The notes under the pieces are model-generated. The model made no database searches. It had not been told where the DNA came from and saw only the letters and a program-made list of their open reading frames with translations. A program made the translations under genes and the position numbers. Shown in pieces: positions 5,345 to 44,023 of a DNA stretch of 64,000 bases. The DNA is taken from assembly GCF_988242995.1 (NCBI RefSeq), contig NZ_OZ547043.1; one strand, written 5' to 3'. Every line of letters starts with the position of its first letter. Within the stretch, counting starts at the first letter, position 1.

Positions 5345-5430
5345 GCGGCCGGATAAGGCGTTAACGCCGCATCCGGCAATGGTGAACGATGCCTGATACG
5401 ACGCATCACGCGTCTTATCAGGCCTACCCG
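5345..5430. repeat. REP/BIME extragenic palindromic repeats
   Basis: gccggataaggcgttaacgccgcatccggc and gcctgatacgacgcatcacgcgtcttatcaggcctac motifs. Confidence 0.8.
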
Positions 5431-30379: not shown

Positions 30380-30472
30380 TGCCGGATGCGACGCTTGCCG
30401 CGTCTTATCCGGCCTACGAATACTATGGATTAACTTCGCGTAGTTCGGATAAGGCGTTCGCGCCGCATCCGA
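30380..30472. repeat. REP/BIME extragenic palindromic repeats
   Basis: gccggatgcgacgcttgccgcgtcttatccggcctac and cggataaggcgttcgcgccgcatccg. Confidence 0.8.
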
Positions 30473-30487
30473 CAATAAACACCTTAT

Positions 30488-31189
30488 CTACAACTTCAGA
30501 ATTTCTTTCACAAACGGAATGGTCAGCTTACGTTGCGCGGTAATCGACGCACGATCCAACTGATCCAACGTCATAAATAACGTGCGCATTTCTCTGTCGA
30601 GCCGCTTCAGCAAGAAACGCCCCACATCTTCCGGCAGTTCAAAACCACGCAAACGCGCGCGTAACTGTAGCGCCTGCAACTTATCTTCATCAGAAAGTGG
30701 CTGCAATTTGTAGATCTGCCCCCAGTCGAGACGCGACGCGAGATCCGGTAATCCAAGATTCAACTGCCGCGGTGGACGATCGCCGGTGATTAACAACCGT
30801 GTTTTGCCCGATTCCAGAATTCGATTGTAGAGATCGAAAATCGCCATCTCCCACAACTCATCGCCTGCAATACACTCAATGTTGTCGATACAGACCAGCG
30901 ACAAATGCTCCATACCGTCGAGCACTTCCGGAACAAACCAGGTGCGTTTATCCAGCGGGACATAGCCCACCGCATCGCCACGCTGCGACAATTCCGCGCA
31001 AGCCGCGTGCAACAGATGGCTGCGCCCCGCGCCTTCGCGTGCCCAGAGATAGATGTAACCGCTATGTTCCTGACGCAGCACGTTTTGCAGCGCGGCCAGT
31101 AAAGAGGAGTTATCCCCCGGCCAGAAACTTGCAAAGGTTTCGTCGTCAGGAAGATAAAGTGGCAAAGAGAGCTGTGCCGGTGTGTTCAG
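30488..31189 (-). CDS. hda: DnaA regulatory inactivator Hda; start placed at internal CTG
   Basis: ORF 30488..31234 begins at GTG; Hda N-terminus (L)[18 protein letters not shown] maps to the CTG codon at 31189..31187, consistent with Hda being reported to initiate at CUG (233 aa). Confidence 0.85.
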
Positions 31190-31283
31190 AGATACCTCAA
31201 CCAGGATTTCACAAAATCGCGAGAAGTTTACCACAGAATCCCATGATGTTTGAACCGGGCAGCAACACTGCCCGGTCGGTACA

Positions 31284-43884: not shown

Positions 43885-44023
43885 TGGGACCCCCTTTTGA
43901 TTTCTTGTTTGACACTTGCAGTTGCCAGACCGCAAGGTGTTTTAACAAATCAAAAGGGGTTTTAATAACTGGCTCAAAGCTGAAAGCTTTCCGGAACCCC
44001 CAGCCTAGCTGGGGGTTTTCTGT

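Follow-up and report, generated by a model that had tools for sequence, protein, structure and literature searches.

In this Escherichia coli locus, hda is very probably translated from a CTG codon positioned by its own Shine–Dalgarno (SD) sequence, whereas the GTG that opens a longer, 248-codon open reading frame (ORF) is part of the hda promoter, and the longer ORF is an accident of frame. The CTG start as such is already known, being both published and correctly annotated in RefSeq. Our analysis makes a modest addition to it: the invariance across the order of the CUG codon, the SD and the promoter geometry, and the recognition of the misleading GTG as a promoter base.

Reading frame and annotation of hda

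In the window, the whole 64,000-nt stretch of DNA that was analysed, the ORF listing and a reading of the minus strand give a GTG-initiated ORF of 248 codons at 30488..31234 (−), and the same reading places a CTG (31189..31187, −) at codon 16 of the 248-aa ORF. The gene lies in the order upp-uraA-hda, with arsC (yfgD) and bepA on the opposite strand. The features discussed below, all on the minus strand, are as follows.

30488..31189 (−): hda coding sequence as translated, 233 codons plus a TAG stop, with CTG first
[quoted passage not shown]
31187..31189 (−): hda initiation codon CTG (CUG), from the sequence reading, order-wide invariance and the published start
31190..31217 (−): 5′ untranslated leader of the proximal hda transcript, about 28 nt, from the published transcription start site (TSS)
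31190..31234 (−): apparently spurious 15-codon N-terminal 'extension', made up of promoter and 5′ leader and without protein conservation
31194..31198 (−): Shine–Dalgarno sequence GAGGT, with its GAGG core (31198..31195) ending 5 nt before the CTG
31225..31233 (−): extended −10 element TGgTAAACT, from conservation and published assignment
31232..31234 (−): GTG opening the 248-codon ORF, very probably not a start codon, overlapping the TG of the extended −10
31249..31254 (−): weak −35 hexamer TTCAAA, with an 18-nt spacer to the −10
31255..31275 (−): hairpin after the uraA stop codon (CCGGGCAG-tgttg-CTGCCCGG; inverted repeat I1), abutting the hda −35

The published start, the current annotation and the comparative data below establish the identity of the start codon. 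The RefSeq/PGAP coding sequence (L001 1712..2413, 702 nt, WP_001307333.1) maps to 31189..30488 of the window, and the 702-nt hda of MG1655 (NC_000913.3, b2496, NP_416991.2) begins at the same CTG. EcoGene 3.0 reports the CTG start and credits it to Su'etsugu 2008 (J Biol Chem 283:36118), and Kim et al. 2017 (PMC5397184) number full-length E. coli Hda 1–233, with residues 4–226 observed in their structure of a 233-aa construct. Hda in chain E of PDB entry 5x06 is identical to the window protein from M/L1 onward, after a tag. The text of the Ribo-RET preprint does not mention hda.

Other sources set the N terminus differently. Older tables carry a 747-nt GTG annotation for b2496 and a truncated 678-nt call for Klebsiella pneumoniae KPN_02819; the 248-aa form of Hda is represented by a cluster with 3510 members, drawn from non-NCBI sources; and the Hda proteins of relatives are annotated at anything from 218 to 272 aa. 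Gene callers that allow only ATG, GTG and TTG mis-set the Hda N terminus, either adding 15 residues or cutting into the clamp-binding motif, and such wrong calls for an essential replication regulator are still common in non-curated protein collections. The first-pass annotation had flagged automated start calls at this locus as unreliable, which these discordant lengths bear out. The 15 residues that it said the GTG would add are correct to the letter, as is the position of the GTG itself, and its proposal that the CTG is the true start, matching the reported CUG initiation of Hda, agrees with the published start, with RefSeq and with all 81 species compared here.

Within E. coli the region hardly varies. 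The 1001 nt around the hda start are 100% identical between the window and E. coli NZ_CP018957.1; the 1-kb region around the CTG is matched in 5425 of 5426 complete E. coli genomes, and a 45-mer centred on the CTG is found in 5423 of them. The 60-nt stretch from GTG to CTG is at least 99% identical in 5363 of the 5426 records, which means that almost every E. coli has the long ORF, though solely through the conservation of promoter and leader.

The CTG codon is invariant across Enterobacterales

The comparison set consists of 80 Enterobacterales loci from about 35 genera, obtained in one scan of species-representative genomes and amounting to 81 with the window. The genera include Escherichia, Citrobacter, Klebsiella, Enterobacter, Serratia, Yersinia, Erwinia, Pantoea, Hafnia, Rahnella, Tatumella and Pectobacterium.

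The codon at the start position is CTG in 81 of 81 sequences, never exchanged for TTG, GTG or ATG in this sample. The other 27 of the 28 invariant-leucine columns of Hda each use two to six codons, the major codon accounting for 31–89%, and interchange of CTG and TTG is common among them. Across the 80 full-length sequences, codon 1 is the sole single-codon site among 134 columns with an invariant, degenerate amino acid; the median third-position identity to the window is 0.55. The CTG also holds in Photorhabdus and at another, more divergent locus, both arranged in the same way.

In many species there is little else to start from. Between the nearest upstream stop and the CTG, 31 of the 81 have no canonical in-frame start, and in 9 more the sole upstream start is a GTG two codons before the CTG that overlaps the SD; an in-frame stop lies within 15 codons upstream of the CTG in 46 of 81. 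The first canonical start downstream falls at residues 7–13, in or just past the clamp motif, or at residue 30 or later. Translated, the extension is not conserved as protein except for 'EV', which is GAG-GTn, the ribosome-binding site read as protein. The locus thus has what marks a CUG-initiated gene: a near-cognate CTG with a spaced SD, orthologues without a canonical alternative, and conservation of the codon beyond the synonymous expectation.

Several variations around the start are confined to particular lineages. The GTn within the SD (codon −2) is GTA in E. coli and GTC in Klebsiella, and it is GTG in 22 of the 81 species (within L050-L081; Erwinia, Pantoea, Yersinia, Hafnia, Mixta and others), where many databases call it as the start, giving 235-aa proteins (MLLNTPA...); since this GTG overlaps the SD, it has no ribosome-binding site of its own. 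Citrobacter spp. (L005-L010) have an in-frame ATG 8 codons (24 nt) before the CTG; it has no SD, and the predicted TSS is only about 5 nt away. The E. coli representative (L003) and L011 have GTG there. The Citrobacter ATG could give rise to a minor, nearly leaderless, extended Hda isoform in those species. In Serratia (L051, L056, L058, L059) 7 nt, not 5, separate the SD from the CTG, and the SD sequence tTGAGGt puts a TGA in frame, that is, a stop codon 4 codons upstream of the CTG.

Ribosome-binding site and N terminus of Hda

The sequence directly before the CTG is TTGAGGTATCT, which contains the GAGG core. Positions −9 to −5, the SD, are conserved in 75–79 of the 81 species, and the spacing from GAGG to CTG is 5 nt in 75 of 81 and 6–7 nt in the others. 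Between the SD and the base just before the CTG, three bases are free to vary; the base next to the CTG is T in 78 of 81. The predicted duplex with the anti-SD at the CTG has an energy of −6.9 kcal/mol, roughly within the top 3–7% of random 20-mers, compared with −4.0 kcal/mol at the GTG, −1.7 kcal/mol at the downstream TTG and +0.3 kcal/mol at the CTG of codon 11 or the ATC of codon 10. These last two were also considered as starts and rejected, both lacking an SD and neither being conserved. A structured leader that masks or exposes the start finds no support in the predicted fold (−10.3 kcal/mol, z = 0.66), which shows no significant structure.

The protein itself points to the same N terminus. 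Two family profiles match above their cutoffs, the NCBIfam equivalog NF005982 at 476.6 bits against 268 and TIGR03420 at 281.4 bits against 194.8; on the long ORF their alignments begin at residues 14 and 21, respectively. The Hda cluster carries Pfam PF00308 and PF22688 (Hda_lid). Hda has none of DnaA domains I, II and IV, aligning only to positions 106–336 of the 437-position DnaA model and scoring below its cutoff. Kim et al. 2017 (PMC5397184) identify the clamp motif as 6-QLSLPL-11, required for function, and the arginine finger as Arg153. In the Enterobacterales alignment (A1), QLSLPL is invariant and matches the Hda motif pattern QL[SP]LPL, and S152-R153-L154 around the Box VII arginine finger (Arg153, codon CGT at 30733..30731) is likewise invariant.

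The distance from the N terminus to the clamp motif discriminates between the two starts. Among 150 representatives of the more distant family, the motif most commonly begins 3 residues after the N terminus, and it lies within 1–8 residues of it in about 80% of the 132 representatives that bear the motif. Counted from the CTG, 5 residues precede the motif, which is typical of the family; counted from the GTG, 20 do, which is atypical. The first-pass annotation had mapped the conserved Hda N terminus to the internal CTG and had advised a search for a ribosome-binding site before it; the family profiles do begin near the CTG, and GAGGU stands 5 nt upstream of it with a duplex stronger than that of the GTG.

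The upstream GTG lies in the hda promoter

Over the 110 nt upstream, the alignment of 81 species contains an island of at least 95% conservation, TGTGnTAAACT (31235..31225), and the GTG falls inside it. Variants of the −10 block follow TGnTA[A/G/C][A/G][C/A]T, with T1, A2 and T6 kept and position 3 free, and the distance from the −10 to the CTG is 34–39 nt in 78 of 81 species; this pattern of variation and the fixed distance fit an extended −10 promoter. In the −35 region, GGT-TC is conserved in the alignment. A scan for two-hexamer consensus promoters (at least 9 of 12 matches) found no site here, because TTCAAA and TAAACT together make only 8 of 12 matches, so that the hda promoter falls below the standard sigma-70 criterion. 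Extended −10 promoters typically tolerate a weak −35.

The positions of promoter and TSS follow from the literature together with this conservation. In Table S1 of Mendoza-Vargas et al. 2009 (PMC2760140), hda has a −35 of CGGTTCAAA, a −10 of GGTAAACT, a spacer of 18 and the entry 'ext TG yes'. Its TSS, mapped by 454 sequencing, is placed at +17 relative to the start annotated at the time and is marked as falling downstream of the gene start. This TSS, based on 3 reads, corresponds to about 31217 in the window, 8 nt after the −10 hexamer, where transcription from such a promoter is expected to begin after about 7 nt. With the GTG some 17 nt upstream of this TSS, the GTG is not part of the proximal hda mRNA. 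A second hda TSS, with 2 reads, was reported by Kim et al. 2012 to lie 620 nt upstream inside uraA (about 31850). Transcripts containing the GTG may arise from this TSS or by read-through from uraA, and a minor long Hda isoform could be made from them.

Three further observations concern this region. A DnaA box overlapping the −10 (TTTACCACA, matching 8 of 9 positions of the relaxed TTWTNCACA) was considered and set aside, as the variation among TAAACT, TAGACT and TACACT fits a −10 better. The hairpin that follows uraA is GC-rich, terminator-like and conserved in Enterobacteriaceae; it was not called as an intrinsic terminator because it has no T-run. Finally, a conserved stretch GCGnTTTTnTG at 31210..31220 (−) covers approximately +1 to +10 of the hda leader and occurs likewise in L003-L082. 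Its nTG has G, A, C or T as the first base and occurs in each of the three frames when counted from the CTG; in many sequences from Enterobacter, Klebsiella and Kosakonia, a TAA comes immediately after it (ATGTAA, TTGTAA, CTGTAA).

Alternative routes to Hda

Were translation to begin at the GTG at 31234, most Hda, or else a substantial second isoform made from longer transcripts, would be 248 residues long. GTG is a canonical start codon that automated callers pick, a weak GGGA lies upstream of it, its frame is open in the window and, judging by the near-identity of the 60-nt region, in nearly all E. coli, and any transcript from the uraA-internal TSS or from uraA read-through would include it. 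Against this, the GTG sits in the extended −10, upstream of the mapped proximal TSS; the frame from GTG to CTG is open in only 8 of the 81 species, with an extension unconserved as protein; a lead of 20 residues before the clamp motif is out of keeping with the Hda family; and both the literature and RefSeq use the 233-aa protein. We regard a functional GTG start as highly unlikely. A start at a canonical codon further downstream, such as the TTG of Leu9 (31165), would accord with the truncated calls that exist in relatives (P0070, P0111 and P0125, as well as the 678-nt KPN_02819), yet it would delete half of the invariant QLSLPL that function requires, it has no SD, and the Leu9 codon is CTG in 49 of 80 species, all of which makes it extremely unlikely.

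Termination–reinitiation would retain the CUG start and change only how ribosomes reach it: a leader uORF ending at a UGA that overlaps the start codon (CUGA) would deliver them to the CUG. In the window, an 8-codon GTG ORF (31212..31186) does end at a TGA that overlaps the CTG; with codon 2 always AAY, the tetranucleotide CTGA does not vary; and some start codon in the uORF frame occurs within the predicted leader in 62 of 83 sequences. The conserved nTG after the T-run, however, is found in all three frames across species, often with TAA at once behind it. The common 4-codon 'ORF' opens with a TTG that belongs to the SD, the candidate start of the uORF lies about 5 nt from the TSS without an SD, and the directly placed SD already accounts for initiation at the CUG. 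With its frame not conserved, reinitiation from a uORF was rejected, its probability being extremely small. Direct, SD-guided initiation at a near-cognate codon is the simplest model for hda.

Model of initiation and Hda dosage

The locus is E. coli hda, whose product inactivates DnaA in the RIDA pathway. In the model of direct initiation at the CUG, the hda mRNA comes mainly from the sigma-70 extended −10 promoter (31233..31225), starting at about 31217. The 5-base SD GAGGU (31198..31194) then sets the 30S subunit on the CUG at 31189..31187, a near-cognate codon that the initiator tRNA decodes as fMet. The product is the 233-residue Hda with QLSLPL at residues 6–11.

In reporter assays, CUG initiates at approximately 1–2% of the level of AUG, and GUG and UUG at 10–100%; a single C-to-T transition in the hda CTG would yield a start roughly ten times stronger. 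Because no such drift to TTG is seen despite the interchange of CTG and TTG at other leucine columns, the sequence comparison suggests that the weak CUG is kept by selection for low Hda synthesis. Taken together, the invariant weak CUG, the fixed SD and the fixed distance from promoter to start suggest strong selection on low Hda dosage. It is a more tentative idea, which we consider possible and no stronger than that, that the weak start codon is itself the selected trait, with Hda dosage set at the level of translation and perhaps tuned by IF3. IF3 discriminates against near-cognate starts. If this idea were true, the rate of DnaA-ATP inactivation would be coupled to the state of the translation apparatus.

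Comparison with known systems

The hda of E. coli K-12 (b2496) is the same gene with the same CTG start in the same bepA/yfgD(arsC)/hda/uraA/upp neighbourhood; we find no material difference from it, the window being another E. coli chromosome with the same allele. Near-cognate starts with a normal SD are also found in E. coli at yfjD (CTG) and at infC and pcnB (AUU), yfjD being confirmed as the second CTG start in EcoGene 3.0. CUG and AUU belong to the same efficiency class of 1–2%. The weak start codon of infC is the sensor of an IF3 autoregulatory loop; such a loop acting through a weak codon has been shown for infC and not for hda.

Outside Enterobacterales, Hda/HdaA proteins are likewise AAA+ proteins resembling DnaA domain III, with the clamp-binding motif at the extreme N terminus. 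The called starts of four outgroup hda loci (52–64% identity) are GTG, GTG, ATG and TTG, none of them CTG, and on these sequences the CTG start appears specific to Enterobacterales within our sample. In three of these loci (L088, L089 and L091) the called start is GTG or TTG and not ATG, which hints that weak initiation of hda may be general beyond Enterobacterales, a sample of four loci being too small for a firmer statement.

Other elements in the window

No tRNA genes were found in the 64,000-nt window. Between hda and arsC lie two REP-like inverted repeats, at 30381..30413 and 30448..30488 (GCCGGATGCGACGC/GCGTCTTATCCGGC and GATAAGGCGTT/AACACCTTATC), the second of which overlaps the hda stop codon. 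Two matches reach the Rfam gathering score: the Hfq-binding sRNA STnc490 at 43894..44017 (−), with 146 bits, and the REP-derived nucleoid-associated RNA naRNA4/CssrE at 5347..5424 (+), with 86 bits.
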